A DNA stretch of 64,000 nt from an uncultured archaeon (GTDB lineage Archaea > Asgardarchaeota > Lokiarchaeia > Sigyniarchaeales > SOKP01): assembly GCA_964632315.1 (NCBI GenBank), contig CAZWEM010000019.1:1486-65485 (forward strand). The letters are read 5' to 3'. The translations under genes and the position numbers were made by a program. Under the pieces are notes generated by a model, which saw nothing but the letters and a program-made list of their open reading frames with translations, was not told the origin of the DNA and did no database searches. Shown one piece after another: positions 973 through 28,519 of this stretch (position 1 is its first letter; each line of letters begins with the position of its first letter).

Positions 973-1716
973 ATGAATGAAAGAAACAATACTTTAAGAG
1001 ATTACATTGAATTAAAAGACTATAATTCAATCAATGATTTTTTAATTGAAAGCAGCAAATCACCAAATGCGAAAGATCTAAAGTATATAGATATTTTATT
1101 AAATGTTCCAGATCTGGAGTTTAGAAAGAATTACATCCTTAATCTTGTTTTTTATTTAGGAGAATTAGGGAAGAGTACTATCCTTGATGAGAAATATGTG
1201 ATCTTCATGAAAAACATTTACTTCCAATCTGATAGATGGGTGCGTAATGAAATACTTACTACAATTTTGAAATTCATGCTTAAAACGAAATTAAATGAGG
1301 ATATTTTTACTATAATTAGAAATGCAATAACGGATGAATATTTAGAAATCAAGTTAAATGCCATCAGAATTATAAATCAAGTTGATAATATCCCCGAAGA
1401 TATTGCCTTGAGAGTCCTATTAAACTTCGGAAGCAATAATTCAGAATTAATTTCTTATTCCTCTCGTATCATTAAGAAAAATGTTAAATCTAATCAAATT
1501 CTAATAAATCTTCTTAAAAAATTATATGATATAAATCCTAACCTAGAAATAGGTTTAATTAGGAACCTATTAATTAACTTATTTGAATCAGTTTTGGAAT
1601 TGGAGCATTTTCGAGAAGATCTTTCAGAAAGTGAGTTAGCTGAACGGTTTAAACAAAAATTTCTTAATGAAATAAAAATTATGCAAAAAATTTTATTAAA
1701 AATTCCAAATCGCTAA
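973..1716 (+). CDS. hypothetical alpha-helical protein (possible HEAT/ARM-like repeats)
   Basis: 247-aa ORF with ATG start. Repetitive helical segments (VRNEILTTILKFM, LEIKLNAIRIINQV). No catalytic motif recognised. Confidence 0.5.
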   Translation: MNERNNTLRDYIELKDYNSINDFLIESSKSPNAKDLKYIDILLNVPDLEFRKNYILNLVFYLGELGKSTILDEKYVIFMKNIYFQSDRWVRNEILTTILKFMLKTKLNEDIFTIIRNAITDEYLEIKLNAIRIINQVDNIPEDIALRVLLNFGSNNSELISYSSRIIKKNVKSNQILINLLKKLYDINPNLEIGLIRNLLINLFESVLELEHFREDLSESELAERFKQKFLNEIKIMQKILLKIPNR

Positions 1717-2930
1717 ATCTCTACAGTATTGACTATACTCTGCAGATTCTCTTGAGTATAGATAATCTTATTAAAAATTCTTATAAATGCTTTGATAATT
1801 TTTCTTGGATTCCCATCATATTTATGATAAATTTTTCTCAATATATCTTCATTCAAGGGAAAATAATCCAGTTCACTAATGTTTATTGATGTTTGGAGTT
1901 CTAATTTTTCAGTAAAATTTTTCATGCTATTTTTATAAAATTCAAAAATGTCATCTTCTTCAAACTTTTTCAAAATGATTGGTTCATTAAATGTGAAGTT
2001 CGGGGTTTGTAATTCTTTGAACCATTGTTTGATCTCTTCAAGAGCTTTAATCGATTTTAATGTTATAATAATTCTTAAACCATTAATTTTCTTTAATTTT
2101 GAAATTCTTTTAATAATTTTCTTAGAAGCAATTTCTTCAGGGGACGTTTCTGGGCCATATAACCAGCTTGGGTCAAAAACTTCCTCTGCATCTTCCTGAG
2201 GTTTGATCATGGATATTAATTTTTCAAAATCATCAATGAATAAAACTGTACCTAATTTTGAATTTTCAATCAATAATTTGAGCATTGTAAAGGCGGTCTT
2301 GCTTTTTCTTAAATCACTGTTCATGTTCAATCGCGATAATTCCCTTACGTCCATTAATTCGCCTAAAAGCCACCCTTCCGCTTCTACCTTCTTATAAGGA
2401 TCTAACTGATGAGTAGTAATTCCATTGATAACGTCAATTAGCGCGCGATAATGATCTTCTTCAAATTGATCCCTTAGCTGACTAAATGCAACATTTTTTA
2501 CTTTTTTCACATCACCAACATGAAAAAATCCAAATTTCCTTTCTAACGCCCCCCATTGGTTACAAAGTTGATTAATGATATTTCGTAATGGTTCTACTCC
2601 TATATTTTCAATGAATTCGGAATAGATATTGTAAAAAAATTTTCGATATACTTTATCCAATGAAATATAAATCGTATTATAATAATATAAGGCAGTTTTT
2701 AGACTCCAATAGAAATGAGTTTTTCCAATTCCAACATCAGCTATGATTGGAAGGAGTATATTGGGATTATTTTTAATGATATTGACAATTTGGGCTAAAG
2801 TTGATTTCCGAGAATCGACAACGCCTAATTCTTCAGCGATTTCTCCCGTGCTGACAAATCTTTTAAAAGGATTGACCCCGATCCTCAAAAAATTAAGTAA
2901 TTTTACTTTCTTATTTTCGTATAATAACAT
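1713..2930 (-). CDS. P-loop NTPase (archaeal ATPase / ORC-like AAA family)
   Basis: 405-aa ORF. Walker A-like ADVGIGKTHF and Walker B-like VLFIDDFE. 7-nt gap from the upstream ORF 2938-3570. Confidence 0.65.
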   Translation of the reverse strand: MLLYENKKVKLLNFLRIGVNPFKRFVSTGEIAEELGVVDSRKSTLAQIVNIIKNNPNILLPIIADVGIGKTHFYWSLKTALYYYNTIYISLDKVYRKFFYNIYSEFIENIGVEPLRNIINQLCNQWGALERKFGFFHVGDVKKVKNVAFSQLRDQFEEDHYRALIDVINGITTHQLDPYKKVEAEGWLLGELMDVRELSRLNMNSDLRKSKTAFTMLKLLIENSKLGTVLFIDDFEKLISMIKPQEDAEEVFDPSWLYGPETSPEEIASKKIIKRISKLKKINGLRIIITLKSIKALEEIKQWFKELQTPNFTFNEPIILKKFEEDDIFEFYKNSMKNFTEKLELQTSINISELDYFPLNEDILRKIYHKYDGNPRKIIKAFIRIFNKIIYTQENLQSIVNTVEI

Positions 2931-2937
2931 GCCTAAA

Positions 2938-3570
2938 TCAGATCTTCAATTCTTCAATTCCCAAGATAATTATAAATTTAACCACTTTATCGTCCACATT
3001 AGTAAGCGGTTCGTAACTCACATCTAATTTATCATTTTTATCTCTTCCAACAATAAGGCAATCATAAAACACAGGATCTCCATGCTGATCTATAACAACT
3101 CTATCAGCAATAATAATACCCCCCATTATTAGAGAAATAGGATTCTTTAAAATTTCCTCTCTAAAAAAATTAAGATGATCAATCCCATATATTGGGTCAT
3201 TCAGATATAATCCAGCAGTATGTAACATATTTATAGTATAAGGAAAAGTATCAGAAAATTGCCCTTCATCATACAATTGCATAACGTCATCGGGTATTTG
3301 AACACAAAAATCAATTAATTCAAAGTCTTCCACCGCATTGGCAATTTTTTGAGAAAAAGCAGAATAATTATTGTTTCTCATTTCAAATCCAATTTTCAAT
3401 CCATTTTTAAATAAGAGCCCACCATTTTCTTTTGGGATTTGGACAGAGTCAGAGAATATAATAGAATCACTTTCGGATTTCAATTTCGTGATTATTGAGC
3501 CTGAATAATCTCCCTCGATCTTAATGTCGAGTATTGAATCAAATAAAACAAATCCATCGATATTACTCAT
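2938..3570 (-). CDS. hypothetical protein, first gene of a two-gene operon with the P-loop NTPase
   Basis: 210-aa ORF with ATG start. No recognisable motif. Confidence 0.55.
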   Translation of the reverse strand: MSNIDGFVLFDSILDIKIEGDYSGSIITKLKSESDSIIFSDSVQIPKENGGLLFKNGLKIGFEMRNNNYSAFSQKIANAVEDFELIDFCVQIPDDVMQLYDEGQFSDTFPYTINMLHTAGLYLNDPIYGIDHLNFFREEILKNPISLIMGGIIIADRVVIDQHGDPVFYDCLIVGRDKNDKLDVSYEPLTNVDDKVVKFIIILGIEELKI

Positions 3571-3781: not shown

Positions 3782-5830
3782 TTATTCAATTTTTGCTCCT
3801 GGAGGTATATCCTTATCAGTAGTTAAAACTGAAACAATTTCGCCATCTACAGCCGCTAACAACATTCCTTGACTTTCAATTCCCCTTAATTTTCGAGGTT
3901 CAAGGTTAGCTAGAATCACGATCTTTTTATTTTTCAATTCTTCAGCTTTATAGTGTTGAGCTAATCCTGCTACTAAAGTTCGTTTTTCATCTCCTAAATC
4001 AATTGTTAACTTGTATAATTTGTCTGCTTTAGGTACTTTTTCTACTTCTTTAACTAAAGCAACTCTTATATCTAGTTTTTTGAAATAATCATATGATACC
4101 AAATCTTTTTCACCTTTATCTTTGCCTTCTTTTATTTTTTTAAGTTTTTCTTGAAGTTCTTTAATATCTAATTTTTGAAAAAGAGGTTTTGGTGATTTTA
4201 TTTTAAGACCACTTTTTATAGCATTACTACTTATGTCGTTCCATTCCAATTTTGAAGGATCAAGATTCAAAAATTCTAAAATTCGAATACTTGTATCAGG
4301 AATGAATGGGTTCAATAGAATTGCAAATGCATGAACTGCTTGGATACAAATATTAAAAACGTGGCCTGCTGCTTTGCGATCTTTTTTAATTAGATGCCAG
4401 GGTGCTTTTTGATTTAAATAAACATTGCATTCCTTTCCAAAGGACACGATATCTCTTATTGACTTTCGGATTTCGAAGTTTAGCATTCCAGTTTCAATTT
4501 TTGTACCCATAGACTCGATTAAAGATAAAAATTGCTCATCTATTGAATCATTCTCAACCCTTTCGGGAACTAATGATTTAAATTGTTTCTCTATGAACGT
4601 CAAGGTTCTATGTATGAAATTACCAATATTATCATTTAGAGCCTTAACATTATTATCGAATTCAGACCATAGGAATGATGTATCACTTGTTTCGGGTCTA
4701 TTATAAAGCAACGAAAACCTCCAATAATCAACAGGGGCCAATTTTAAAGCATCGTCGATCCATATCCCTATTCTTCTAGATTTAGAAAACTTGGTATTTT
4801 CGAACATTAACCATTCTGTTGAAGATACGTTATAAGGGAGCACGAATTTGTCTTTTTCCCCTTTATCTTTATTATATCCTAACAATAAGCCTGGAAATAT
4901 AATTAGATGAAAGATGATATTATCTTTTCCAATAAAGAAGACAGACTTAGTATTTTTATCTTTCCAGAAATAATCAAATTTTTCTGGTTTTTTAATTATT
5001 TTATCGGCCCATTCTTTGACTGCTGAAATATAGCCTAAAACCGCTTCAAACCACACATAAATTGTTTTTCCTTGTGCTCCTTCAAATTTTGCAGGAATGC
5101 CCCATTCTAAATCCCTAGTTATTGCCCGTTCGGGTATTCCTTCTGCTATGCTATTCAAACACATTTGACGAGCATTTTGAGGGATGATCTCATTGTTGTC
5201 AATTAATTCAGCCAGTTTATCCTGTAACTTCGGGAAGTCAAAATACCAATGCTTAGTCTTCTTGATGATGGGTGTATTACCACATATTGCGCATCTAGGT
5301 TTTTTTAAATCCAGTGGGGTTAATAATTTTTGACAATTATCGCATTGATCTCCTCTAGCATCTTCATAATTACAGTGTGGGCATTCTCCCTCAACAAATC
5401 TGTCTGGTAGAAAGAAATCATCTTGTTTACAATATAATGATTCAATCTCCTTTTCAAAAATGAAACCATTTTTTTGAACATCAAGATAAAAGTTTTGAAC
5501 AAATTCTATATGGGTCGGATTATGAGTGATTGTATAATTATCATAAGATAAATTCCATTTTTTATACAAATCTTTAATAATTGCATGGTTTTTAAATGCT
5601 AATTCTTCAGTTGATATGTTTAACTTCTTAGCTTCTACTGCTACCGGAGTTCCATGTGAATCAGAGCCAGAAACGAACACAACTTCATCACCCCTTAATC
5701 TGAGAAATCGAGCGAAAACATCTGCGGATAAAGTACTTCCAATCATATTTCCAAGATGAGGAATGGCATTTACGTATGGCCATGCACTTGTCACTACCCA
5801 TTTCGATCTTTCTTTGTTAGAAATGTTCAA
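3782..5830 (-). CDS. metG: methionyl-tRNA synthetase with C-terminal Trbp111/EMAP-like tRNA-binding domain
   Basis: AWPYVNAIPHLGNMIGS (HIGH-type), KFSKSRRIG (KMSKS-type), zinc knuckles CPHC...CDNC and CAICG. C-terminal LDIRVALV...IESQGMLLAA. TTG start. Confidence 0.95.
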   Translation of the reverse strand: MNISNKERSKWVVTSAWPYVNAIPHLGNMIGSTLSADVFARFLRLRGDEVVFVSGSDSHGTPVAVEAKKLNISTEELAFKNHAIIKDLYKKWNLSYDNYTITHNPTHIEFVQNFYLDVQKNGFIFEKEIESLYCKQDDFFLPDRFVEGECPHCNYEDARGDQCDNCQKLLTPLDLKKPRCAICGNTPIIKKTKHWYFDFPKLQDKLAELIDNNEIIPQNARQMCLNSIAEGIPERAITRDLEWGIPAKFEGAQGKTIYVWFEAVLGYISAVKEWADKIIKKPEKFDYFWKDKNTKSVFFIGKDNIIFHLIIFPGLLLGYNKDKGEKDKFVLPYNVSSTEWLMFENTKFSKSRRIGIWIDDALKLAPVDYWRFSLLYNRPETSDTSFLWSEFDNNVKALNDNIGNFIHRTLTFIEKQFKSLVPERVENDSIDEQFLSLIESMGTKIETGMLNFEIRKSIRDIVSFGKECNVYLNQKAPWHLIKKDRKAAGHVFNICIQAVHAFAILLNPFIPDTSIRILEFLNLDPSKLEWNDISSNAIKSGLKIKSPKPLFQKLDIKELQEKLKKIKEGKDKGEKDLVSYDYFKKLDIRVALVKEVEKVPKADKLYKLTIDLGDEKRTLVAGLAQHYKAEELKNKKIVILANLEPRKLRGIESQGMLLAAVDGEIVSVLTTDKDIPPGAKIE

Positions 5831-5945: not shown

Positions 5946-7124
5946 TCAACCGTAATGAATTTTTAACCCACAATTTCGACAGGCTCTAATTTCCTTGTTC
6001 ATTTTTTCTAAACAAGGTTCATGATAATAAGCGCCACATTTTTCACATTGATAAACTTTATAATCTCCTAGAAAAATACTTCGACAATAACTACAAGAAG
6101 AATTAATTTTAGAGATCTCTTCCTTTTCGATTAAGACCATAGATGTATCTTTATTTCCATCTTGCGATAATAATTTGATTTTATGTCCAGATTCTTTTCT
6201 TTCTTTTATAATTTTTGCTGCCGAAGGGGGCAATTCTAATAAAAAATAACAAAATGGACACCGAAACACGTTATCCTTATATTCGGTCTTTTGTGCCCAC
6301 ATCGCAGCACAAGAGAGATGCATTGATCTATCACAAGAAGGACAGTATCTACCTTCTGAAAAAAAATCGGAATTTGTGACAGGTGATTTAGTTGAATGAC
6401 ATATTTGGCATTTTTCTTGACCCTTTCCATCTATGGACATCATTAAACGTATATCAAGAACAGAAGGTCTTCTTAATGGGAGAGCAATTTCACTTACAAG
6501 TGGAGCGATCTTCTCTACTTTATTTGGAGCGAAATAATCCGTAGTCGTAGCACTATCTTTTTTTGAAGCAAAAGCCTTTCCAGAATTAAGAATTGCTTTA
6601 GAATTATTGAAAAAGCCATACTCACCTCGAGTATCATTGCATATTTTTTTAAATAACCCTCCAGATATTGTTTCAACAACTCCATATTGACAAACATCGA
6701 TAAAGATATGCAATCCTTTAGCAATTTCTACTAATTTCTGCAGTCTGTGGCTATTTTCTGGACTACTATCGGTAATTATAAATATCCTATTATTTTTCCC
6801 GCCTAACTTTCTCATTTCTTCAACCAATATCTGGAGAGAAAATGCAATTCCATCAGTAAATTGACTATTACCCGATATTCTTAATCTCATTAAGCTCTGA
6901 ATTAATCTCTCTTCTTCATAACTAAAAGAAGATAACTTTCTAGTATCATCTCCAAAAGATAAAATAGCAATTCTATCTTTTGGATCAATAAGGAATTTTG
7001 TATGAACGAAATTTTTTACAGTATTTAAGGCAACGGTTATTCTGTCGGGTTTAAAATCTTTTCTCATCATTGAACGAGACACGTCAATGAGAACTACTGT
7101 ATCTTCAGGTTTTATATCATGCAA
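5946..7124 (-). CDS. von Willebrand factor A domain protein with two C-terminal C4HC3 (PHD/RING-variant) zinc fingers
   Basis: MIDAS-like VVLIDVSRSM. Finger 1: CQIC-x18-CPSC-x4-H-x2-C-x16-CPFC. Finger 2: CSYC-x12-CEKC-x4-H-x2-C-x10-CRNC. TTG start. Confidence 0.8.
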   Translation of the reverse strand: MHDIKPEDTVVLIDVSRSMMRKDFKPDRITVALNTVKNFVHTKFLIDPKDRIAILSFGDDTRKLSSFSYEEERLIQSLMRLRISGNSQFTDGIAFSLQILVEEMRKLGGKNNRIFIITDSSPENSHRLQKLVEIAKGLHIFIDVCQYGVVETISGGLFKKICNDTRGEYGFFNNSKAILNSGKAFASKKDSATTTDYFAPNKVEKIAPLVSEIALPLRRPSVLDIRLMMSIDGKGQEKCQICHSTKSPVTNSDFFSEGRYCPSCDRSMHLSCAAMWAQKTEYKDNVFRCPFCYFLLELPPSAAKIIKERKESGHKIKLLSQDGNKDTSMVLIEKEEISKINSSCSYCRSIFLGDYKVYQCEKCGAYYHEPCLEKMNKEIRACRNCGLKIHYG

Positions 7125-7188
7125 GATGCTTTTCCAATTTAAAAATCAATTTATCTCTATAAAAAATATAACTGTATAAATAACTTTA

Positions 7189-8550
7189 TTATTTTTGTTT
7201 AAGAAATTCATAAGCGAAAAGGGCATATACTTTAATTGAATTTATAAAATCTTCTATTTCTATATATTCATCAACAGCATGAGCTTTTTCACCTCTTCCT
7301 GGACCGAATATAACAGTTTGGGGGCAAATTCCAGAATTTCTAATATAATGAGCATCAGCAGAGGCAGGTAATAATAAATAAAAGGACTTTTTGTTATAAG
7401 TCTTTTCAATAATATCATGCAATGTTTTTAGATGGTTTGATTCTTCCCAATCTTTCCAGTAAGATCCTTCGGAGGCATCACTAGTTTCGACAAATACATA
7501 TGGCTCGTTATTATTTTCTCCTAATTTATCTTTAATATTATAACTTGTCTCATTTAAAATTAGCTCTTTCAATCCGTCTATAATCGAATCAACTTTCTGC
7601 CCCGGCAATAAGCGAACATCGATTAATGCCTCACACCTATCGGGTACCACGTTTTCTTTTATGCCTGCTTTAATCATAGTTACTGAATAACTGAAATTTA
7701 CAAGTGATTGAATTACGCTATTAAGCATGGGTTGTTCGTTTAAGATTCTTTCAAAAATCTCTCGACTAGCAAAAACTTCAGCGACTAAGCTCTTTAATTT
7801 TTCAAGTGTCATTGGAGGCTGTGCGGGAGGAATGTAATTCTTTAACTTACTCAGTTTTATAACTATTTCACTCATCATATCTATTGCATTTTTGCCCAAT
7901 GAAGGCATAGAAGCATGGCAAGATATGCCGTTAGTAATTAATTTAACATATAAATGTCCTTTTTCTCCCAATAAAATGGCTTTTGGTAACGGATTTAAGC
8001 CCGATGCTTCACCAACTATGGTAAAATCGGGTTTTTTTGATTTAAGGGGATTTTCAAGACACCATTTAGTTCCAAAAATGCCCCCCGTCTCTTCATCAGC
8101 TACAGCATTAACAATTAAATTCCCAGAAAGTTCATTTTCAAAAGGTTTTAAAATTTTTAATGCAATGATCATGGCAACCAAACCACCTTTCATATCTGTC
8201 GTTCCTCGCCCATAGATATATTTTTTCCGCTTAATAGTCGCATCTAATGGAGGGCTGGACCAATCGGAATCATTTCCCGGGGGAACAACATCCATATGTC
8301 CATTGTAAAGTAAGAGTTTATCATCATTGCCATTTAATGAAGCAACTAAATTAGCTCTGTTTTCTCCAAATGGATAAATTTCCGAAGTAATGCTAAACTT
8401 TTTTAAAAATCCATCGATTACTTTCGCAACATTCAGTTCATCCCCAGGAGGATTATAGGATTTAGCTTTTAACACATCCCGAAAAAAATCAATGTACATT
8501 TCACGATTCTTTTCTATATCTTTTAAAATCTGCTCTTCAGTCATATTCAT
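7189..8550 (-). CDS. M20-family metallopeptidase (ArgE/DapE/carboxypeptidase G2-like)
   Basis: GHMDVVPPG, GRGTTDMKGG and VADEETGG motifs; 453 aa. Confidence 0.9.
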   Translation of the reverse strand: MNMTEEQILKDIEKNREMYIDFFRDVLKAKSYNPPGDELNVAKVIDGFLKKFSITSEIYPFGENRANLVASLNGNDDKLLLYNGHMDVVPPGNDSDWSSPPLDATIKRKKYIYGRGTTDMKGGLVAMIIALKILKPFENELSGNLIVNAVADEETGGIFGTKWCLENPLKSKKPDFTIVGEASGLNPLPKAILLGEKGHLYVKLITNGISCHASMPSLGKNAIDMMSEIVIKLSKLKNYIPPAQPPMTLEKLKSLVAEVFASREIFERILNEQPMLNSVIQSLVNFSYSVTMIKAGIKENVVPDRCEALIDVRLLPGQKVDSIIDGLKELILNETSYNIKDKLGENNNEPYVFVETSDASEGSYWKDWEESNHLKTLHDIIEKTYNKKSFYLLLPASADAHYIRNSGICPQTVIFGPGRGEKAHAVDEYIEIEDFINSIKVYALFAYEFLKQK

Positions 8551-8703: not shown

Positions 8704-11700
8704 TTGAATTTTGTGATACGACGAAAAAAAGAGGAAAGACAAATTTTTGTAGTGAGTATCTTTATAATATCAATTTTTCTAATTAGTACTCCACTATTTT
8801 CTAATTTTAATTCAATTTTCACTAATTCTCAAAATGAAGATTTGAATCATAATGAAATAAAAGATCTATCAGTTAGCTCAGATAATTATTTGAATGATTA
8901 TTACATTACAGGAACTGGGAATGATCAACAAGTTCAGATTTATGCGACAAATTCTTCAAATTCAAATATTAACAATCAAAATTATTTTGACATTCCATCA
9001 ATGTCCTCTGTAGATGATACGTTTCTGACTAGAGGGGATTTTAATTTCACGTTTCAAAATAATTATACAACGAACTACGTGATTGAAGATACTTATCCAC
9101 TAAATGCATCCAATTTTATTGAATTTGATATGAATACGGGTAGTGGGTATTCTACGATAGCCCTCGAAAATGGAACATCTAGTAATTTGAATCTAGACAC
9201 CCTTACTGATGATAGTTTATCGACTTCCTCCTTTATTAACGCAGAAAATGGAATAGTTAACCTTACATTAAGTGCTGATTTCTCTGATACAACATTTGTT
9301 AATTCTCCTACAGGCATAAATCTCAATTTCGACAGAAATCTAATAATAGGATTTATTACTTCTTTAATTTTTGAAATCAGTAGAAATGCTACATTAACAA
9401 TCATGATGAGAGATATTACATCTTCTTCTTGGGTAAATGTAACGCAGCCAATATCCCTAGATAGCACATTAGGTACATTAGATATTGAACAGAAAATCAT
9501 TAATGAAAATTTACAATATATAAATCTTTCCAACGAAAATAACGTTCAGTTTTATTTCGAACGATTTGATACCTCGAATTATAATATTACTCTCTATGAA
9601 TTACATGATAAATCAATTTATGGATTTGATCTTCCTATAACTGATACAAATTGGGTGGCTCTTGAGTTTGACCTTAAAGGCTTGAGTTCTACCGTCAATG
9701 GCTTCAATGCTTGGATTAGAACTTTGAATCTAACTAAGGCTTTAGATGCTGAATTAAATGTCACCTTATATAAAGCTAATAGGACTGTTGCAAGAACTAG
9801 CAAAAATTTGGTAGACAATACGATGAGACCAGAATATTCAGAAAAAATTGATAGTTTTGTATTAGATTATAGCGCATACCACGGAGATTCTATTCATTAT
9901 TTTAAATTCAATACGAGTAACACTTCCAATCTCGGGTTATACAATTACTTTATTGTCATATATTCTAATTCATCTGAGCTTGTATATAGTTTAGCTACGA
10001 TTCCTAGAGAAACTTTTGGAGATCCCGATGAGAGAATTGATCATCAATTAAAAAGGAGTAGTGATGGTGGATTATCATGGGTAAATGCACATAAAAACGT
10101 GCCCACTAATTATGAATCAGAGCAACTCGATGCCAGTCCTTTTGTTTTAAATGTCACGAGGGGATACATGCCTTCTGATTTTTATATTTCTGAAGATGAT
10201 AATTTAAATATACAAGACATGCGGGTTGAAAATTTAGCAATTAATACTGGTATTTATGCTACAAGTTCTGCACTTACATGGGGATTAGGAAGATGGAATA
10301 ATGATTTTACCACGGAAATAACAAATAATACCGTAAATGATTTTCGAATTGATTTAAATTGGAGTAAATTGGTGATTAAGGGATTCAAATTCAACGTGTC
10401 TTATTTTGTAAAAGCTTATTGGAATGAGCCTGCATTAGTTGGCTATAATGTAAGCTATAATTCAATTCCAAGATGGCATTTTAATTTTACATTCGATTCA
10501 AGCAATGTAAATCTTGATGAATGGAACTTTTATGAATTTTGGTTTGTATATCCTAGTTATTTTGATGCAACAAACCTGACTAATCCAAGTAATGAGGATA
10601 TCTATAATTTAACAGGAAAAGAAGTTCAAATTTCGGGTATCCCTCAAGATAAAACGATTGTAAACTCAACTTTAGCAACTGATGGACTCTATGTATTAGA
10701 AGCTACCTCCCCAAACCTCATTAAAGAAATGCACAGTTATATTTATTACAAAGAGGATTTACTTGAGACTAATGGATTTATGTATGGAGATAATATGACG
10801 GTTAGGTTAGATATTTTAGATCAAAATGGAAAGATCCCTAAGGGGGGATTAGCGAATGTATCTCTATATTATCCAAATAATAGTACAAAATATCCAGGAA
10901 CAGATAGAAGTAGCAGTGAAGCAATTAAAATAGATGATACTAAAACTTACTCTTTCAGTAATGATACTATCTTAATGGTGAATGAAAGTGTCCCCTTAGA
11001 TAATTATTATTTAGGATTCTTTTGGTCAAATGGGACTGCCATCGGATGTAAAACATTGAAAGTGTATATTAATGCATATGATATTGAATTAGACGACTTA
11101 TTTTATGAACCCAATTTTAATACTAACGTGCTTAGTGGTATCGTTTCTGAAGTGTATGATAACTATTCATTACTATTAGCTAGTGTTAATGAAACAACTG
11201 GTTTAACTAATCCCGACTTTTATACTGTTAATCAATCAGGCTTGAATCAAGAATACAGTATTGACATTAGTGGAAACCAAATACCTGTAATGTTTAAATC
11301 ATTTTTACAAAATGAAACTATTCTCAATCCAGGAGAGATTGTCAAATTTTCGACTGAGATTCAAAATCTACATGAATTGATTAACTTAGATGTATCGATA
11401 AATGTTAAATTAGTTGCTTTAGGAAATGAAGACTGGATCATCGATGAGGCTACTTCTGCGATTCAAAATTTATCACTTAAAGGAGATCCAAGTGGAAATG
11501 ATACTAAAGATTTCTCAGTTGAACTTCAGGTTCCTGATTTTCAACCTGATGGCACATGGATGGGTCTAAATGCCCCTATCCGAAAAGGTGGTGCTAAAAC
11601 AATCGTTACAATATATATTGGGAATAAAATTGCTGGATATTACGAAAGTCCAGACTATTCCATACTTATAAATGACCACGAAGATATTTTTGAGGGATTC

Positions 11701-12792
11701 ATAATAGCGTTAAAATATAACACGGGAATTACCAGTGAATCAATTATAAGATCATTTCAGCGGGATCAATGTTTGTATCTTCCAGAATCTACAAAGATCT
11801 TTGCTAATATTTATGATGATAACATGCTAAGTAGTTATACTCAATTTAATAAATCCTTCAACTTAAAATTGAACAGTCAATTTAATGAGATAGTAGTTAA
11901 TCCCAAAACTCCAATCAGGGGAGAATTCTTCAATTTAACTGCTAAATTAACATCAGAATTCGGGGAAGCTTTAGAAAATGAGAATATTACTCTTCAGTAT
12001 TATGATCATGGTAATTGGAGTAATTTGAGCTCACAAATGACAGGACCAAATGGCACATTACTATGCATAGTTGATTCTCTATCTCTAAATGAAGAAGATG
12101 CTTACAAGTTCCGATTTTCGTGGAATGGAACACAACTTATAATGGGAACTACTGAAAATTTTACTGTTAATATCTTGCGACAATTAAACTTGATTGATCT
12201 TCATTTAAGCCAGAATTCAGTACAAATTTATCGAAATGGATTAACTACGATTAACCTTAGAATTGATAATATCGGAGAATCAACTTTGAACATCACTGAG
12301 TTTATAATTAATGTAGACCCAGATTTAAGCTATAAGATTGTAAAAATTAACAATCTTGAAATAAGTAAACTATTTCCAAATAATTCGACACTAGTAACTC
12401 TAGAGATAGAAGTATCTAATATACATGAGTTTTCAATTTCTTTATCTGTTAAAACTCAAAATACATTAACCCTGGAAAGTAACACTTTCAACATATCAAA
12501 AAGTTTTGAAACATTTGAAAGACCCTTAGAATATTATATTAATCAAGCTATTGCTTTAATCATTTTTGTCATATTTGCTTGCATAGCACTCATCACTTAT
12601 TTAGTAGTGAAGAGATCGATCCGAGCAATTGAAACTCCTGTAGAAGAACCGACTAAAAAGAAGAAGAGAAGAGGACGATATATGCCTGTAGCAGAGATTT
12701 CGAAAGAGATCGAAGAGGAGGAAAAAGAAGAAAGCAAGACGGACCTTGATTCTCTCCTTGAAGAAGAGGGTCTTAAAGATAACGATGATTGA
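8704..12792 (+). CDS. giant cell-surface (S-layer-like) glycoprotein, N-terminal signal anchor and C-terminal TM anchor
   Basis: 1362 aa. N-terminal hydrophobic IFVVSIFIISIFLISTPLF and C-terminal TM AIALIIFVIFACIALITYLVV, followed by a KKKKRRGR/acidic tail. Dozens of N-x-S/T sequons. CARDB-like beta-sandwich segment near the C-terminus. TTG start (alternative GTG at 8713). Confidence 0.8.
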   Translation: MNFVIRRKKEERQIFVVSIFIISIFLISTPLFSNFNSIFTNSQNEDLNHNEIKDLSVSSDNYLNDYYITGTGNDQQVQIYATNSSNSNINNQNYFDIPSMSSVDDTFLTRGDFNFTFQNNYTTNYVIEDTYPLNASNFIEFDMNTGSGYSTIALENGTSSNLNLDTLTDDSLSTSSFINAENGIVNLTLSADFSDTTFVNSPTGINLNFDRNLIIGFITSLIFEISRNATLTIMMRDITSSSWVNVTQPISLDSTLGTLDIEQKIINENLQYINLSNENNVQFYFERFDTSNYNITLYELHDKSIYGFDLPITDTNWVALEFDLKGLSSTVNGFNAWIRTLNLTKALDAELNVTLYKANRTVARTSKNLVDNTMRPEYSEKIDSFVLDYSAYHGDSIHYFKFNTSNTSNLGLYNYFIVIYSNSSELVYSLATIPRETFGDPDERIDHQLKRSSDGGLSWVNAHKNVPTNYESEQLDASPFVLNVTRGYMPSDFYISEDDNLNIQDMRVENLAINTGIYATSSALTWGLGRWNNDFTTEITNNTVNDFRIDLNWSKLVIKGFKFNVSYFVKAYWNEPALVGYNVSYNSIPRWHFNFTFDSSNVNLDEWNFYEFWFVYPSYFDATNLTNPSNEDIYNLTGKEVQISGIPQDKTIVNSTLATDGLYVLEATSPNLIKEMHSYIYYKEDLLETNGFMYGDNMTVRLDILDQNGKIPKGGLANVSLYYPNNSTKYPGTDRSSSEAIKIDDTKTYSFSNDTILMVNESVPLDNYYLGFFWSNGTAIGCKTLKVYINAYDIELDDLFYEPNFNTNVLSGIVSEVYDNYSLLLASVNETTGLTNPDFYTVNQSGLNQEYSIDISGNQIPVMFKSFLQNETILNPGEIVKFSTEIQNLHELINLDVSINVKLVALGNEDWIIDEATSAIQNLSLKGDPSGNDTKDFSVELQVPDFQPDGTWMGLNAPIRKGGAKTIVTIYIGNKIAGYYESPDYSILINDHEDIFEGFIIALKYNTGITSESIIRSFQRDQCLYLPESTKIFANIYDDNMLSSYTQFNKSFNLKLNSQFNEIVVNPKTPIRGEFFNLTAKLTSEFGEALENENITLQYYDHGNWSNLSSQMTGPNGTLLCIVDSLSLNEEDAYKFRFSWNGTQLIMGTTENFTVNILRQLNLIDLHLSQNSVQIYRNGLTTINLRIDNIGESTLNITEFIINVDPDLSYKIVKINNLEISKLFPNNSTLVTLEIEVSNIHEFSISLSVKTQNTLTLESNTFNISKSFETFERPLEYYINQAIALIIFVIFACIALITYLVVKRSIRAIETPVEEPTKKKKRRGRYMPVAEISKEIEEEEKEESKTDLDSLLEEEGLKDNDD

Positions 12793-12850: not shown

Positions 12851-13201
12851 TTAAGGATTTGATAAAGAGATTAAATTTCGTTTCAAAAGACTTAGTGAAG
12901 CCTTCCCATCTAAACCAGCTAAAGCGATTAAAAGCATCTCGTCTGATCCTGCTAATACTGCAAATCCATCTGCCAATTCGACTGTCGCAGTTTTTAAAGT
13001 TCCTTTTCCAAGGCTATTTCCCAACTTATTCGAACTGGTGATAATTGAAACACATTCTTTAGCAATCAAGCCATGATCCATATCCGTAAGTGTTTGTCCA
13101 ACGAGTACTTTCCCATTCATATCACTCGCAATTAAACCCTCACATTCGGGTACTAAGTCCATCAACTCTGCTAGTTTCTTTTCAAGTTCTTTTTTATCCA
13201 T
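12851..13201 (-). CDS. Roadblock/LC7 (MglB-like) domain protein
   Basis: 116 aa. CEGLIASDMNGKVLVGQT...TATVELADGFAVLAGSDEMLLIALAG fits the Roadblock a-b-b-a-b-b-b pattern. Confidence 0.8.
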   Translation of the reverse strand: MDKKELEKKLAELMDLVPECEGLIASDMNGKVLVGQTLTDMDHGLIAKECVSIITSSNKLGNSLGKGTLKTATVELADGFAVLAGSDEMLLIALAGLDGKASLSLLKRNLISLSNP

Positions 13202-13346: not shown

Positions 13347-13631
13347 TTACTTCAATATGATCAAAATGAGGTTTTCTTCACGAGCTATCATAATTTCCCC
13401 CTTCGAAGTCTCTAATCGGATGAAATTTAGCCGCCCCTCATCCAAGGCTTTAACACATGATTCTGATTTACCTATTAATGCTGTAATATATGCGGACACC
13501 TCTTCAGTTTGTTCTGTAGCAAGATTTGACTTTATTGGGAGCCCTGTAGAATCACAGATAATCACTCCTCTAACACCTTCTTTCTCTTCGAAGCGGCGTA
13601 TGATCGCTTTTACTTCGTTCACATCTATCAA
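13347..13631 (-). CDS. Roadblock/LC7 domain protein
   Basis: 94 aa. VRGVIICDSTGLPIKS...FIRLETSKGEIMIAREENLILIIL. TTG start. Confidence 0.75.
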   Translation of the reverse strand: MIDVNEVKAIIRRFEEKEGVRGVIICDSTGLPIKSNLATEQTEEVSAYITALIGKSESCVKALDEGRLNFIRLETSKGEIMIAREENLILIILK

Positions 13632-21802: not shown

Positions 21803-22648
21803 TTATTTTAATGGATATCTTGGTTTTCTTTTTTGCATAAAAGCTGCGGAACCCTCATTCATATCTTTAGAGCTAAATGATAATACTATTCCATAATTTT
21901 CTAATTGCAATATTGTTTCTAAACTGGGAGAATCTAAACTCAAGTTTACTGCCTGTTTTGTCATCCTAAGCCCTAATGGACTTTTTGTAAGCATCTCTTC
22001 AGCGATTTCATAAGCACTCAGATACAATTTCTCTCTTTCGACTAATTTGAAAATAAAGCCAAATTCTTTTGCTTCTTTTGCAGTTAATTCTCGTCCCGTA
22101 TACAGAACTTCTGCTGCTCTAGATAATCCAATTAGTCTTGGTAAGAAATAACTTCCTCCAACATCTGCTCCAGTAAGTCCAAGATTTATTGATCCATTCA
22201 CGAATTTGGCATCAAAAGCCCCTATTCTAATATCGGATGCCATTGCAAAGCCAAATCCCCCTCCTACTGCTGCTCCTTGGATGGTGCAAATAATTGGTTG
22301 ACTTATTTTTCGCATTTTGACATAAATTTGACTGATCCTCCATTGATGATAAAGCTTTTTCTTGATCGGTTCAGGAGAGTTGAGGTGAAAATATTTCTCG
22401 AATCCTTCTGGAACTTTTTTGACGTTTAAATTAAGCCCATCTTGTAAATCAGTCCCTGCACAAAAAGCCCTACCTTTTCCTTGAAAAATGATCACTCTAC
22501 AATCTAAGTTTATCATTAATTCGTCGAGTAGAGAATGAAGTTCTTCTTCCATCTGAAATGAAATAGCATTTAATTTTTCTGGGCGGTTTAAGGTTAGAAT
22601 TCCAATTCCATTATTATTTAATTCAAATTCAATAGTTTCATAACCCAT
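21803..22648 (-). CDS. enoyl-CoA hydratase/isomerase (crotonase) family protein, paralog 1
   Basis: LTLNRPEKLNA, FCAGTDL, QGAAVGGGFGFAMASDIR. ATG at 22648; the ORF track starts at a GTG at 22657. Confidence 0.9.
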   Translation of the reverse strand: MGYETIEFELNNNGIGILTLNRPEKLNAISFQMEEELHSLLDELMINLDCRVIIFQGKGRAFCAGTDLQDGLNLNVKKVPEGFEKYFHLNSPEPIKKKLYHQWRISQIYVKMRKISQPIICTIQGAAVGGGFGFAMASDIRIGAFDAKFVNGSINLGLTGADVGGSYFLPRLIGLSRAAEVLYTGRELTAKEAKEFGFIFKLVEREKLYLSAYEIAEEMLTKSPLGLRMTKQAVNLSLDSPSLETILQLENYGIVLSFSSKDMNEGSAAFMQKRKPRYPLK

Positions 22649-22687
22649 GATGATCACTTTAGAAAATTTGTAGGAAAATAAATACTC

Positions 22688-24376: not shown

Positions 24377-25237
24377 TTACTTTAATGGATATTTAGGATC
24401 TCTTTTTTCAAAAAATGCTTGAACCGCTTCAGTGAGATCACTAGAAGAAGAGCAAAGCATTTGAGCCCGATTTTCTAACTCTATTATTGTATCTATGCTT
24501 GGAGAATTTTGGGATAGATTGATGGCATGTTTTGTCATCCTTAAACCTAAGGGGCTTTTCCTGAGAAGTTCCTCTGCTAGTCTTAGCCCTTCATCGAGTA
24601 AGACCTCTTTCTTAACAACTCTTGACACGAGACCTATCTTTTCTGCCTCATCTGCTTCTATAAAACGTCCAGTATAAAGAATTTCAGCAGCTCGTGACAT
24701 ACCAATGAGTCTTGGTAGGTGATATGAACTTGCCATATCTGATCCCGAAAATCCTACATTTATGAAAGCATTATTAAACCTTGCTTTATAACTAGCAATC
24801 CGAATATCCGAAGCCAAAGCATAAGCAAAACCTAATCCAGATGCAGCTCCTTGAATCAAAGCAATGATGGGTTGGCTTATTTTTCGCATTTTTAATATTA
24901 TCTGGCTGGTATGCCATTGAGCATACAATTTCGCTTTAATAACGTCTTTTTCAGGAGTATCAACATAAAAGAATTTCTCTTTTAATTCCTGTGGTTTTTT
25001 TTTCGATTGTAAAACTGTTGATTCTTTAAGATCTAACCCTGCACAGAAAGCTTTCCCTTCAGCTTTAAGGATAACAACCCGACAATCTAAATTCGTCATG
25101 AGATGATCCATTATTGAATGAAGATCTTCAATCATTTGAAATGAAACTGCATTTAGCTTATCTGGACGATTTAACGTCAAGATTCCAATACCATTATCTT
25201 GTAGATCAAATTTTATAGTTTCGTAATTGTCTTTCAT
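24377..25237 (-). CDS. enoyl-CoA hydratase/isomerase family protein, paralog 2
   Basis: LTLNRPDKLNA, FCAGLDL, QGAASGLGFAYALASDIR. About half of positions are identical to paralog 1 by eye. ATG at 25237 (TTG at 25246 in the ORF track). Confidence 0.9.
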   Translation of the reverse strand: MKDNYETIKFDLQDNGIGILTLNRPDKLNAVSFQMIEDLHSIMDHLMTNLDCRVVILKAEGKAFCAGLDLKESTVLQSKKKPQELKEKFFYVDTPEKDVIKAKLYAQWHTSQIILKMRKISQPIIALIQGAASGLGFAYALASDIRIASYKARFNNAFINVGFSGSDMASSYHLPRLIGMSRAAEILYTGRFIEADEAEKIGLVSRVVKKEVLLDEGLRLAEELLRKSPLGLRMTKHAINLSQNSPSIDTIIELENRAQMLCSSSSDLTEAVQAFFEKRDPKYPLK

Positions 25238-25482
25238 TCTAAACAACTATCATATAATTACAATTGAATTTATAAATGAGACCTTAGATTAAAAATATTC
25301 ATAAAGTATTAAAAATAATTCTTATAATCTAAGTTCTCATAAGAAGAGAAAGATTAATTAGAGGGTATTTGAGTACGAATTCCCTAAATATAAAAATTTC
25401 TGTTTATAATAGCTAAATTTATTTTTAAATGACATAATATTCAATTATCACGATTGAATCTAATTAATTAAAGGGGAATAAA

Positions 25483-27882
25483 ATGATTGTATCGGAGAAA
25501 TCAGAAAGGATCTCTAAATTAAAAGGAAAACTGTTATCAAGTAAGTACGAATTATGTACCGAAAGAATGCGCTATTACACTGAAATATATAAAGAGTTTC
25601 CGAATGATCCAGAAAATATAAAAAGAGCAAAAGCATTGGCTCATACCCTTAAAAATATGAACATTTTCATTAGAGAAGACGAACTTTTAGTAGGGAGTGA
25701 AACGAGCAAAAACTTGGGAGAAAAGTTCAATTTAGATTTAGCTCGATATGATACTAGTTTTGAAAAAAAGAATACGTACAAAAAGTTAGCAAGACGAAAA
25801 GTACAGCCATTTTTTATACAAGAAGAAGAGATAGATGAAATACTCGAAATGATCCCTTTTTGGAAGGGAAAGGCGCTAGTTGCTGATTATACTAACAAAC
25901 GACTACTAAAAGAAGGCTATATCTCTTCTGAAGGTATAATATCCTCTTTAGCTCCTAATATTGCAATTCAGATCGGTACTACTGAGGGACATGTATGTGC
26001 GGGTTATGAAAAACTTCTGAAATTAGGATATTATGGGATTTTTAAAGAAGCTAACAGACTGCAAGAGAACTTAAAAAAAGAGGACAAAAATTACCAAGAA
26101 AAACATGACTTTTATGAAGCTATTAAGATATATTATCAAGCTGCTCGAGAGTTTTCTAAAAGATATTCAAGATTGGCCACTACTTTAGCAGAAAGTCATG
26201 ACTATGATTTAAGGAAAGGAGATTTATCTAAAATTGCTCAAATGATGGAAAAGTTTTATTCAAATCCTCCAGATACGTTTTATGAAGCTGTACAATTTAT
26301 TTGGTTCTCACAAAATATTGCAAATATTATTTTTCAGAGAAGTGTTGTTGCTCTTGGACGACTGGATCAGATATTGTGGCCATATTATTTAAGAGATCTT
26401 AAAAAAGGATTAATTACGAAGGATTTTGCATTAGAACTCATTGAAGAATTGAATTTAAAACTAACATGGAATGTAACCCTATTGCCAACAGACTTTACGA
26501 TGGTTGCAAACGCAATTGGACAAAACACGCAAACAATAACAATAGGTGGGCTCGATAAAAAAGGAAACGATGCAACTAATGAATTGTCCTATTTATTTCT
26601 ACAAGCCTATGCGAATGTAAAAGTGTTTACAACGGATCTTTCCGTCAGGATTAGCGAGAAAACCCCCAAAGAATTTTTTCTTGAAGCAATCAAAGTCTTT
26701 AAATCAACCTCTGGAATTGCATTCTATAATGATGAAATTATAATTCCTTCTTTAATCGAATCTGGTTATATTTCAGAGGATGCAAGAGATTACGTAATAA
26801 TTGGTTGTGTTGAACCAACGGGTCAAGGAAATTCTTTTGCAGCTACTGGTAGAATGTTTCTAAATCTGCCAGGCGTACTTGAACTTGTGCTTAATAATGG
26901 TTATAGCAACCTTTCCAAAAAGATTGATGGCTTTCAAACGGGAGAAGTCTCGAAATTTATTAGTTATGAACAGTTTTATGATGCATTTGTTCAGCAGCTC
27001 CAATATAACATTAAAAAGTCCGTGGAGATTGCAGCAATTGGAGATCAAGAGGCAATGAAATATTTTCAGCACCCTTACATTTCCGCGACGATTAATGGGT
27101 GCTTAGAATCTGGAAAAGATCACGTTTGTGGAGGAGCTAAATATAATTTTTCTTCAATAACAGCTTATGGATTTGCGACTCTAGTTGATTCCATGTACAA
27201 TATTAAAAAACTAGTTTATGATGAAAAAGTAATTTCTTTAGAAAGATTTGTAGAAATTTTAAATTCAAATTTTAAAGATCAAGAAAAATTTCGACAGATA
27301 CTCCTCAACAAGACACAGAAATGGGGCAATGATCAAGAAGAAATCGATACTTTAGCGAGTGAATTATGGATTCTTTTTACATCCGAAGTAGCAAAACATA
27401 AACCATTAAGAGGAGGTCGCTTTAACGCAGGAGCATATTCGATGGGGATCCATGTTATGGAAGGATTATTCACACAACCAAGTGCAGATGGTAGGAAAGC
27501 ACTTGAACCAATTTCAAATAGTTTATCTCCAGTAAATCACGCAACCCGAAATGGGTTAACATCCGTCTTAAATTCGGTAGCTAAGCTAAACTATAAGTAT
27601 GCAACGAATGGAATAGCCGTAAATGTTAGGATGCATCATCAAAATTTAGAGTCTAAGGAAAATCAAGAGAAATTATACAATCTACTTCAGGGATACTTTA
27701 GCAATGGAGGAATGCAAATACAACCGAATGTCGTCTCTACTGAAACTTTGAGAGACGCTCAAGAACATCCACAAGAGTATTTGGACCTTATTGTGAAGGT
27801 TGGAGGGTATAATGCCACTTTTGTTGATTTAGGGACTCCGATTCAAAATGACATCATTGATCGAATGGAATATGAGCTTTAA
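25483..27882 (+). CDS. glycyl radical enzyme, PFL2 / dehydratase-lyase clade
   Basis: 799 aa. N-terminal RISKLKGKLL...CTERMRYYTEIYKEF, catalytic IIGCVEPTG, C-terminal glycyl radical motif LIVKVGGYNATFVDL. Confidence 0.9.
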   Translation: MIVSEKSERISKLKGKLLSSKYELCTERMRYYTEIYKEFPNDPENIKRAKALAHTLKNMNIFIREDELLVGSETSKNLGEKFNLDLARYDTSFEKKNTYKKLARRKVQPFFIQEEEIDEILEMIPFWKGKALVADYTNKRLLKEGYISSEGIISSLAPNIAIQIGTTEGHVCAGYEKLLKLGYYGIFKEANRLQENLKKEDKNYQEKHDFYEAIKIYYQAAREFSKRYSRLATTLAESHDYDLRKGDLSKIAQMMEKFYSNPPDTFYEAVQFIWFSQNIANIIFQRSVVALGRLDQILWPYYLRDLKKGLITKDFALELIEELNLKLTWNVTLLPTDFTMVANAIGQNTQTITIGGLDKKGNDATNELSYLFLQAYANVKVFTTDLSVRISEKTPKEFFLEAIKVFKSTSGIAFYNDEIIIPSLIESGYISEDARDYVIIGCVEPTGQGNSFAATGRMFLNLPGVLELVLNNGYSNLSKKIDGFQTGEVSKFISYEQFYDAFVQQLQYNIKKSVEIAAIGDQEAMKYFQHPYISATINGCLESGKDHVCGGAKYNFSSITAYGFATLVDSMYNIKKLVYDEKVISLERFVEILNSNFKDQEKFRQILLNKTQKWGNDQEEIDTLASELWILFTSEVAKHKPLRGGRFNAGAYSMGIHVMEGLFTQPSADGRKALEPISNSLSPVNHATRNGLTSVLNSVAKLNYKYATNGIAVNVRMHHQNLESKENQEKLYNLLQGYFSNGGMQIQPNVVSTETLRDAQEHPQEYLDLIVKVGGYNATFVDLGTPIQNDIIDRMEYEL

Positions 27883-27988: not shown

Positions 27989-28519
27989 ATGCCACGTCAG
28001 GTTGCGTTGAAAATTTTGGTATTAGGAGATGGAGGAAGTGGTAAGACAACATTACTTCACCGTTATGTAAATGGAGAGTTCATAGATACTACTACGATGA
28101 CAATTGGAGTTGAGTTTTTCACTAAACAAATAACAATTGATTCTACCAATGTAAGTTTAATTTTATGGGATATAACTGGACAAGATCGCTTTAGGCACAT
28201 GATTGCGCGCTACATGAAGGGAGCAAGTGGTGCATTAATACTTTATGATATGACAAATATGGACAGTTTTGTACACGTAGGTAAATGGATGAAAATTGTG
28301 CATGAATTCTATGAAAATTTACCAATAATTCTTGTCGCAGCTAAATATGATTTAGAAGAATTTTCAGCAGTGGACGATAAAAATGCTCAAAATGCTAAAG
28401 AAAAATATAAAATGAACGACTTTATAAAGATTTCTTCTAAAACTGGTTTAAATGTAGATTTAGCTGTTGAAAAATTAGTAAAGGATTCAATTAAAGCTAA
28501 GAACTTGATTGCTAAATAA
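27989..28519 (+). CDS. Ras/Rab-like small GTPase
   Basis: G1 GDGGSGKT, G3 WDITGQDRF, G4 AKYD (NKxD variant), G5 SSKTG. No C-terminal Cys. Confidence 0.9.
   Translation: MPRQVALKILVLGDGGSGKTTLLHRYVNGEFIDTTTMTIGVEFFTKQITIDSTNVSLILWDITGQDRFRHMIARYMKGASGALILYDMTNMDSFVHVGKWMKIVHEFYENLPIILVAAKYDLEEFSAVDDKNAQNAKEKYKMNDFIKISSKTGLNVDLAVEKLVKDSIKAKNLIAK

Follow-up and report, generated by a model that had tools for sequence, protein, structure and literature searches.

The window, i.e. the whole stretch of 64,000 nucleotides (64 kb) of Lokiarchaeial DNA analysed in this work, carries on its minus strand a complete gene (5946..7124) for a protein of 392 amino acids (aa) composed of a vWA domain and two RING-type zinc fingers. 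The gene was delimited using the list of open reading frames (ORFs), the start common to the homologues and the orthologue alignment; it begins with a TTG codon at 7122-7124 and ends with the stop codon at 5946-5948. The orthologues begin, like the window protein, with M-x-D-I-K, which makes the TTG start credible.

All features described below are encoded on the minus strand. The vWA domain, of the Rpn10/p44-like kind, occupies aa 7-187 (6564..7106) as judged by Pfam, by profile matches to PDB and by a hidden Markov model (HMM) of the p44 vWA domain; alignments placed in it the metal-ion-dependent adhesion site (MIDAS) motif D14-V-S16-R-S18 (aa 14-18, 7071..7085) and the later MIDAS Asp, D119 (6768-6770). 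A conserved linker (aa 188-235, 6420..6563; orthologue alignment and model) leads to finger 1, a C4HC3 binuclear RING variant (aa 239-292, 6249..6410) recognised by its invariance, profile matches and model, with C239, C242, C261, C264, H269, C272, C289 and C292 as ligands. The inter-finger segment (aa 293-343, 6096..6248; orthologue alignment and models) is followed by finger 2, a RING-H2/PHD-like C4HC3 finger (aa 344-385, 5970..6095) assigned on profile matches, Pfam C1_1 and its register with p44, whose ligands are C344, C347, C360, C363, H368, C371, C382 and C385. The patterns CQIC-x18-CPSC-x4-H-x2-C-x16-CPFC (finger 1) and CSYC-x12-CEKC-x4-H-x2-C-x10-CRNC (finger 2), noted with this spacing in the original prediction, are exact in the sequence, and a regular-expression scan of the 64 kb in six frames found the eight-ligand pattern at these two places only. 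Their occurrence is not due to chance.

A homologue search among 5.8 billion proteins gave 395 matches. The best 120 of them are 61-88 % identical to the window protein and mostly 372-394 aa long (a few are shorter and one has 423 aa); where names are given in this set, they are 'VWA domain-containing protein' from Promethearchaeota, Lokiarchaeota, Thor- or Hodarchaeota metagenome-assembled genomes (MAGs). When 1.84 billion cluster representatives were scanned exhaustively with HMMER, only 247 sequences were returned at E <= 1e-3 and 39 at E <= 1e-30, and the architecture of approximately 390-416 aa was retained in them down to approximately 29 % identity. All 16 zinc ligands, D14, S16, S18 and W276 are invariant in 27 orthologues (61-88 % identity). 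Among 33 family members of 25-71 % identity, 15 of the 16 ligands and W276 are still invariant, and C371, I241 and P290 are conserved in at least 90 %.

The 27 orthologues also have in common A186/S187 at the end of the vWA helix and, in the linker, K188/K189, D196, F198, P200 and L217-R-R-P220; in the full-length model aa 189-212 are predicted to be largely unstructured (predicted local distance difference test, pLDDT, <50). Between the fingers come, in this order, a conserved FLLELP strand, a helix, a variable charged linker (model pLDDT <50) and a conserved strand (aa 326-332 in the full-length model) that precedes finger 2. In those of the 80 recovered loci where all three genes could be compared, the identity to the window copies was 65-84 % for the methionyl-tRNA synthetase (MetRS), 56-71 % for the vWA/finger protein and 51-65 % for the M20-family peptidase. 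Since its identity range is close to those of the two enzymes encoded in the same loci, the vWA/finger protein appears to evolve at an ordinary housekeeping-like rate.

Apart from one bin, every homologue that carries a taxon name is Asgard (Promethearchaeota, Lokiarchaeia, Hel- or Hodarchaeota), and the homologues are not the ordinary bacterial vWA-zinc-ribbon proteins which, according to the original prediction, would have spoken against it. The same holds for the divergent subfamilies, in which every named member comes from Promethearchaeota, Lokiarchaeia, Hel- or Hodarchaeota. Several paralogous subfamilies are present in Asgard MAGs, and the Helarchaeota versions are 619-686 aa long. More distant relatives keep the vWA domain and finger 1 and end with a simple zinc ribbon (Zn_Ribbon_1/DZR). 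The exceptional bin (DATKTW010000029.1) bears the label 'Candidatus Nanopelagicaceae bacterium' (Actinomycetota) and encodes an orthologue of 64 % identity; because all other named homologues are Asgard, this contig is probably mis-binned or mislabelled. The labels Hod-, Thor-, Odin- and Hermodarchaeota were not taken as proof of an Asgard-wide distribution, the orthologues that bear them being 56-66 % identical and placed in identical synteny. The window sequence itself was found in salt-marsh DNA metagenome runs only.

The C-terminal part (aa 231-392) was modelled with AlphaFold2 from 37 sequences, with a mean pLDDT of 84 and values of 88-95 within the fingers. Each finger is modelled as a beta-beta-alpha unit, with a pair of short strands near ligands 3-5 and a helix that begins at ligand 6, i.e. 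with the RING/PHD treble-clef topology and not as the independent zinc ribbons that would have spoken against the original prediction. Foldseek neighbours of the finger model comprise RNF165, TRIM2, FANCL (4ccg), NSE1 (5hvq), RNF38, RNF12 and Slx1, at a probability of 0.97-1.0, TM scores of 0.5-0.64 and a root-mean-square deviation of 3.2-3.8 A. Several of these RING structures (RNF165, TRIM2, FANCL 4ccg, RNF38 and RNF12) were solved with a ubiquitin-conjugating enzyme (E2) bound. Interleaved, cross-brace ligation of zinc may be inferred from the modelled topology together with the structural neighbours.

The profile of finger 1 matched in PDB the FANCL RING (5.5e-4), followed by the SLX1 RING, listerin, NSE1, Pep5, the KDM2A PHD and the EL5 RING-H2. 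In the alignment with FANCL ligands 1, 2 and 4-8 are matched, ligand by ligand from ligand 4 onward, and the E2-contact positions I241, W276 (four residues after ligand 6) and P290 are aligned with the FANCL Ile, Trp and Pro. The C4HC3 ligand set is common to finger 1 and the RINGs of FANCL, SLX1, NSE1 and listerin, which are likewise its structural neighbours (4ccg_X, 5hvq_C, 6sei_C and 7kzp_L). However, the E-values of finger 1 are modest even for the best of them, a conserved motif of its own is present in the longer loop that joins ligands 2 and 3, and none of the four proteins has a vWA domain.

Finger 2 found its best matches among RING-H2 ubiquitin ligases (E3s), headed by Arkadia/RNF111 at 6.2e-10 and continued by RNF4, RNF165, synoviolin and RNF38; these matches cover the full domain at E-values of 6e-10 to 1e-6, and RING-H2 E3s are also structural neighbours in Foldseek. 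Outside the RING group the same profile matched PHD fingers (1e-5 to 1e-3) and C1 domains (1.7e-5). In contrast to RING-H2, which has C-x-H-x2-H at ligands 3-5, finger 2 has C-x2-C-x4-H, with Met in place of Trp after ligand 6 and usually Arg in place of Pro after ligand 7. At the E2-contact positions its Tyr/Met/Arg give a partial fit only.

Pfam searches with the 33 family members recorded zf-RING_2 in 23, C1_1 in 23, PHD in 18, Prok-RING_1 in 16 and PHD_NSD in 11 of them, and more rarely zf-ANAPC11 (4 members) as well as FANCL_C, SLX1_C and zf-rbx1 (2 members each). Prok-RING_1 (PF14446) stayed below its gathering score in the window protein (22.4 versus 29.1 bits), with 4.1e-6 as the best E-value in the family. 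Prokaryotic RING finger families were reportedly described by Burroughs, Iyer and Aravind in 2011. Such RINGs have been described in operons, whereas the vWA/finger gene does not lie beside E1, E2 or JAB genes (E1 denoting the ubiquitin-activating enzyme); the C4HC3 finger in a prokaryote is what both have in common, together with the weak Prok-RING_1 matches. Prokaryotic RING domains are typically C4HC3 (review, PMC11354881). In these sequence comparisons RING variants and RING-H2 are nearer to the two fingers than are RINGv or PHD fingers of the histone-reader type. The C4HC3 finger assignment of the original prediction holds.

In the N-terminal half of the protein Pfam detected VWA_2 (1.4e-15), VWA (2.7e-9) and Ssl1 (5.7e-9), all above the gathering scores, in agreement with the vWA/MIDAS signature DVSRS read earlier from the sequence. 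The Ssl1 family (PF04056) scored 36.5 bits against a cut-off of 27 over profile positions 2-157 of 193, and it was matched by 20 of the 33 family members (E <= 0.01), the p34 family Tfb4 being matched by five. With the single sequence the PDB search gave Rpn10 at 2e-8 and p44 at 1.4e-4, and with the family profile Rpn10 at 4.6e-18, p44 at 2.6e-16, BABAM1 at 1.7e-8 and the best bacterial vWA domain at 7.8e-11. The kinship of the vWA domain to p44/Ssl1 and Rpn10 that had been suspected is thus supported by its best PDB sequence matches; the profile scores of these two are nearly equal. D14, S16, S18 and D119 of the MIDAS are invariant in the orthologues, the Thr position is occupied by Gly or Ser and is not conserved, and some paralogues in the 33-member alignment carry degenerate motifs such as DGTEIM or DPMRSS.

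For comparison an HMM was prepared from 33 eukaryotic p44 vWA segments and used together with the profile scores. It gave 37-44 bits for the five best-scoring family members (37 bits for the window protein) and at most 24.6 bits for stand-alone archaeal vWA relatives. At the profile level the gap is modest, with hhalign scores against p44 of 111 for the family and 99 for the stand-alone vWA proteins. Because these stand-alone archaeal proteins (BatA/'Ca-activated chloride channel'-like) are very close to the family (hhalign E 1.8e-43), the vWA domain appears to belong to the prokaryotic BatA-like vWA clade, within which the vWA/finger family would be the most p44-like. BatA-like proteins (COG2304-type) presumably share the D-x-S-x-S-M...P-x-R-L motif with the family, but they have no RING-type fingers and score lower with the p44-vWA HMM.

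The likeness to p44 extends beyond the vWA domain. When the full-length model (pLDDT 67) was compared with known structures, the top 19 Foldseek matches were full-length p44/Ssl1 chains from TFIIH structures (E 4e-16 to 4e-11, approximately 390-400 aligned columns), and for comparison the p44 vWA domain alone gave 4e-11 and the Rpn10 vWA domain 1.3e-10. The family profile aligned with human p44 in three collinear pieces. The vWA piece was matched at 5e-14, the middle piece ('GrfCPnCgr' against 'GYFCPQCRA' of the p44 central finger) was not significant, and finger 2 fell on p44 residues 339-389 with every ligand in register, at an independent E-value of 0.86. With hhalign a p44 isoform alignment gave a single match of 12-390 to 61-319 (98.2 % probability, E 3.4e-14, 254 columns), in which the second zinc site of finger 1 (C261/C264 and C289/C292) is aligned with the four Cys of the central finger of p44, and finger 2 with its C4C4 finger. 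That alignment was narrow, composed of vertebrate isoform fragments, since the human p44 vWA query returned only sequences below 300 aa and none of the full length of approximately 395 aa.

Both proteins thus have the same order of an N-terminal vWA domain, a central zinc module and a C-terminal eight-ligand finger, and both have the vWA motif D-x-S-R-(S/T)-M-x3-D-(F/L)-K-P-(D/N)-R. The spacing of finger 2 (x2/x12/x2/x4/x2/x10/x2) is almost identical to that of the p44 C-terminal finger (x2/x11/x2/x4/x2/x10/x2). On the other hand, p44 is a subunit of eukaryotic TFIIH and the window protein is archaeal, finger 1 is a complete binuclear C4HC3 where p44 has a mononuclear C4 in the centre, and the last finger is C4C4 in p44 but C4HC3 here. 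The vWA domain dominates the hhalign score; with the fingers alone only finger 2 aligned with the p44 C-terminal domain, at 10.7 % probability and in the correct ligand register. Pfam C1_4 (PF07975), which represents that domain, did not match the window protein at E <= 10, nor was it among the 25 most-matched of the 35 families found in the 33 members. Because C1_4 is unmatched and the finger-only comparison is weak, membership of the p44 family is not established, the architecture being p44-like and homology with p44 over the whole length plausible. The p44/Ssl1 architecture put forward in the original prediction held as a collinear arrangement of a vWA domain and two zinc modules.

The product is a soluble, zinc-dependent protein of several domains, found in Lokiarchaeia-type Asgard archaea, in which a vWA domain is followed by two C4HC3 fingers of a predicted cross-brace kind in the order seen in p44. 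From its domain composition, conservation and likeness to RING-type fingers and to p44 we infer, tentatively and with somewhat less than even confidence, that it acts as a vWA-anchored RING E3-like adaptor or scaffold, with the vWA domain and the two binuclear fingers arranged as in p44/Ssl1. The vWA domain would hold a partner or substrate protein via its DxSxS/Asp MIDAS site. Since finger 1 retains the Ile, Trp and Pro positions used by RING E3s such as FANCL, this surface could dock a charged E2 belonging to the ubiquitin-like system of Asgard archaea. Finger 2 may serve as a second RING-type interaction module or in dimerisation, in the way the p44 C-terminal finger binds the vWA domain of p34. 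The same proposal draws on the vWA domain being closest to those of Rpn10 and p44, both of which are parts of ubiquitin- or E3-linked machines.

Several observations weigh against an E3-like role. Neither finger has the canonical RING spacing C3-x(1-3)-H/C4-x(2-3)-H/C5-x2-C6, both showing the C-x2-C-x4-H-x2-C of PHD and variant-RING fingers. The residue after the last ligand is Tyr/Phe in finger 1 and Gly in finger 2, where many active RINGs have an Arg/Lys/Asn 'linchpin'. The nearest relatives of C4HC3 type (p44, NSE1 and SLX1) serve for the most part as structural interaction modules, and the E-values of the finger-only Foldseek matches are weak (6e-3 or worse). No E1, E2, ubiquitin-like, JAB, proteasome, XPD or XPB gene was detected in the 64 kb window by Pfam scans that covered most ORFs of at least 110 aa and, of the 14 intergenic ORFs with 50-109 aa, 8; for most of the window the earlier statement that E1, E2 and ubiquitin genes are not adjacent is therefore correct. 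The surroundings of the orthologues likewise yielded no gene for an E1, an E2, a ubiquitin-like or a JAB protein. The five divergent subfamilies have no recurrent neighbour except in one (P0128/P0271), where the vWA-RING gene lies head to head with a gene for a 271-274-aa ThiF/MoeB-type E1-like protein on two differently flanked contigs. This neighbour, which counts in favour of an E3-like role, is the only hint of a link to a ubiquitin-like system in any of the neighbourhoods; it is confined to that one subfamily and falls below every curated NCBIfam cut-off.

The main rival explanation is that of a non-catalytic, p44/Ssl1-like scaffold, in which the vWA domain would bind or regulate a partner enzyme (e.g. 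an XPD-type helicase) and the fingers would be protein glue, holding for example a paralogue's vWA domain, with no transfer of ubiquitin. It is a possible reading, though in our judgement an unlikely one. The p44/Ssl1 chains at the head of the full-length Foldseek comparison, the collinear hhalign match, the nearly shared spacing of finger 2 and the Ssl1 and Tfb4 matches all speak for it, and the paralogous subfamilies in Asgard MAGs would allow a p44/p34-like pairing. Against it, the p44 score comes mainly from the vWA domain and was obtained with vertebrate isoform fragments only, C1_4 is unmatched, and RING-H2 E3s match finger 2 far better than p44 does. No XPD, p34, p62 or p52 partner gene was found in the window or the syntenic loci, to which the search was confined, and XPB is likewise missing from the surroundings.

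An Rpn10-like receptor or adaptor, whose vWA domain would dock on a proteasome-activating or Cdc48-type ATPase while the fingers capture clients, is improbable. In its favour, no other sequence matches the vWA domain as well as Rpn10 (PSMD4), but the p44 scores are nearly as good and only the vWA domain aligns: Rpn10 continues from the vWA domain into ubiquitin-interacting motifs (UIMs) and has no zinc fingers, and the reverse is true of the window protein, the C-terminal half of which consists of zinc fingers and contains no UIM or other known ubiquitin-binding motif. No proteasome genes are present in the neighbourhood, the nearest case being a PAC2 gene approximately 4.4 kb away in one Helarchaeota relative.

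Still less probable is the view that the fingers are reader modules binding peptide tails in the PHD manner (e.g. those of archaeal histones or ribosomal proteins) or lipids in the C1 manner. PHD fingers are defined as C-x2-C-x(8-21)-C-x2-C-x4-H-x2-C-x(12-46)-C-x2-C, which finger 1 fits and finger 2 follows except for its short last loop (x10). Finger 1 has, in addition, an aromatic residue two positions before ligand 7 (F287), comparable with the PHD Trp and invariant in the orthologues, which is missing from finger 2; the PHD_NSD matches and the KDM2A PHD among the matches of finger 1 point in the same direction. Nevertheless, Pfam PHD (PF00628) reached its cut-off only for the whole protein (24.5 versus 24), no single stretch passing alone, and the RING and RING-variant matches are stronger and more numerous. 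The C1 domain has the ligand set H-x12-C-x2-C-x(13-14)-C-x2-C-x4-H-x2-C-x7-C. C1_1 scored 30.4 bits against 26.5, but only over positions 12-49 of 53, and finger 2 lacks the first, N-terminal His ligand and ends with C-x2-C. The remaining alternative of an ordinary prokaryotic vWA protein with independent zinc ribbons, to which the closeness to BatA-like archaeal proteins and the C-terminal ribbon of the distant relatives might lead, is very improbable, as in both fingers ligand 5 is a His and ligand 6 is followed by a helix, RING/PHD profiles and structures match both, no zinc-ribbon family of Pfam matches the window protein, and the named homologues are Asgard apart from the probably mislabelled bin.

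The vWA-anchored, RING E3-like protein favoured here could also have a bearing on the origin of TFIIH. The family may represent an Asgard sister or forerunner of p44/Ssl1 and, by duplication, of p34/Tfb4, the central C4 of p44 being what is left of the second zinc site in a once complete C4HC3 RING (finger 1), and its C4C4 finger being derived from finger 2; the TFIIH core scaffold would then stem from a pre-eukaryotic archaeal vWA-RING E3-like protein. We consider this derivation doubtful. The TFIIH helicases XPB and XPD have known archaeal counterparts; for the scaffold subunits p44 and p34, to our knowledge and judging by full-text searches, none has been described. Ssl1 is also reported to have ubiquitin-ligase activity. 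A conserved Asgard protein collinear with p44 and having two intact RING-type fingers is a concrete candidate for the origin of the TFIIH scaffold and of the ligase activity reported for Ssl1. Irrespective of this origin, the protein is a candidate for a multi-domain RING E3 in the ubiquitin-like system of Asgard archaea. The only archaeal RING protein reported to have been reconstituted so far is a small stand-alone one from Caldiarchaeum (PMC5654768). No published description of the vWA/double-finger family was found in full-text literature searches; the 'TFIIH-like' Asgard report that they brought up concerns a RAD25/XPB-like helicase. The C4HC3 type of finger is already known in prokaryotes; the novelty lies in its union with a vWA domain of the p44/Rpn10 kind, in a family that is collinear with p44 and restricted to Asgard archaea. 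As a short, soluble protein encoded in many Lokiarchaeia-type genomes, it lends itself to direct tests of zinc content, E2 binding, ligase activity and partners.

On the minus strand of the window the vWA/finger gene stands between the genes for the M20-family peptidase (7189-8550) and MetRS (3782-5830), in the order peptidase, vWA/finger gene, MetRS. The peptidase neighbour is kept in 77 of 79 loci and MetRS in 70. This neighbourhood was rejected as a sign of an operon or a common function, given that the loci belong to close relatives (MetRS 65-84 % identical) and that the syntenic block spans unrelated genes. A divergently oriented gene upstream of the peptidase (8704-12792, plus strand) encodes a 1362-aa protein rich in N-x-S/T sequons, with a hydrophobic segment at both ends, probably a glycosylated surface protein; it is found in 59 of the 79 loci at approximately 45 % identity, and its homologue has no recorded Pfam match. 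After MetRS, two conserved genes for proteins of 210 and 405 aa without a Pfam match (2938-3570 and 1713-2930, minus strand) follow on the same strand in 47-60 of the 79 loci, the larger protein showing a faint ATPase_2 match in a homologue. In most relatives a 414-aa gene of the opposite strand separates MetRS from this pair and is missing from the window.

In the divergent subfamilies, the ThiF/MoeB-type genes mentioned above lie at 2158-2973 (L086) and 6754-7578 (L087), both on the minus strand, and the vWA-RING gene is followed there by a gene for a VTT-domain membrane protein. In the paralogous subfamily P0133 the neighbour is a 402-aa Arf/RagA-like GTPase (L083, 1890-3098, minus strand).

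A second, unrelated vWA system is present in the window at 54670-55902 and 55928-56782 (minus strand), where a VWA_CoxE-type protein is encoded beside an AAA ATPase in what looks like a MoxR/CoxD-CoxE-type pair. Elsewhere the window contains Ras-like GTPase and Roadblock genes, typical 'eukaryotic signature' genes of Asgard archaea that support an Asgard origin of the window: three stand-alone small GTPases of the Ras family and a 433-aa protein containing a Ras-like domain (27989-28519, plus strand; 34657-35196, 35337-35876 and 51298-52599, minus strand), and two Roadblock/LC7 proteins (12851-13201 and 13347-13631, minus strand), one of which also matches LAMTOR5. Metabolic genes are found at 25483-27882 (plus strand) and at 39374-40801, 21803-22657 and 24377-25246 (minus strand). 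They are those for a glycyl-radical enzyme of the pyruvate formate-lyase type and a homologue of MTTB-family methyltransferases, and two enoyl-CoA hydratase genes that flank a phosphorylase-family (PNP_UDP_1) gene and a gene for a leucine-rich-repeat protein.

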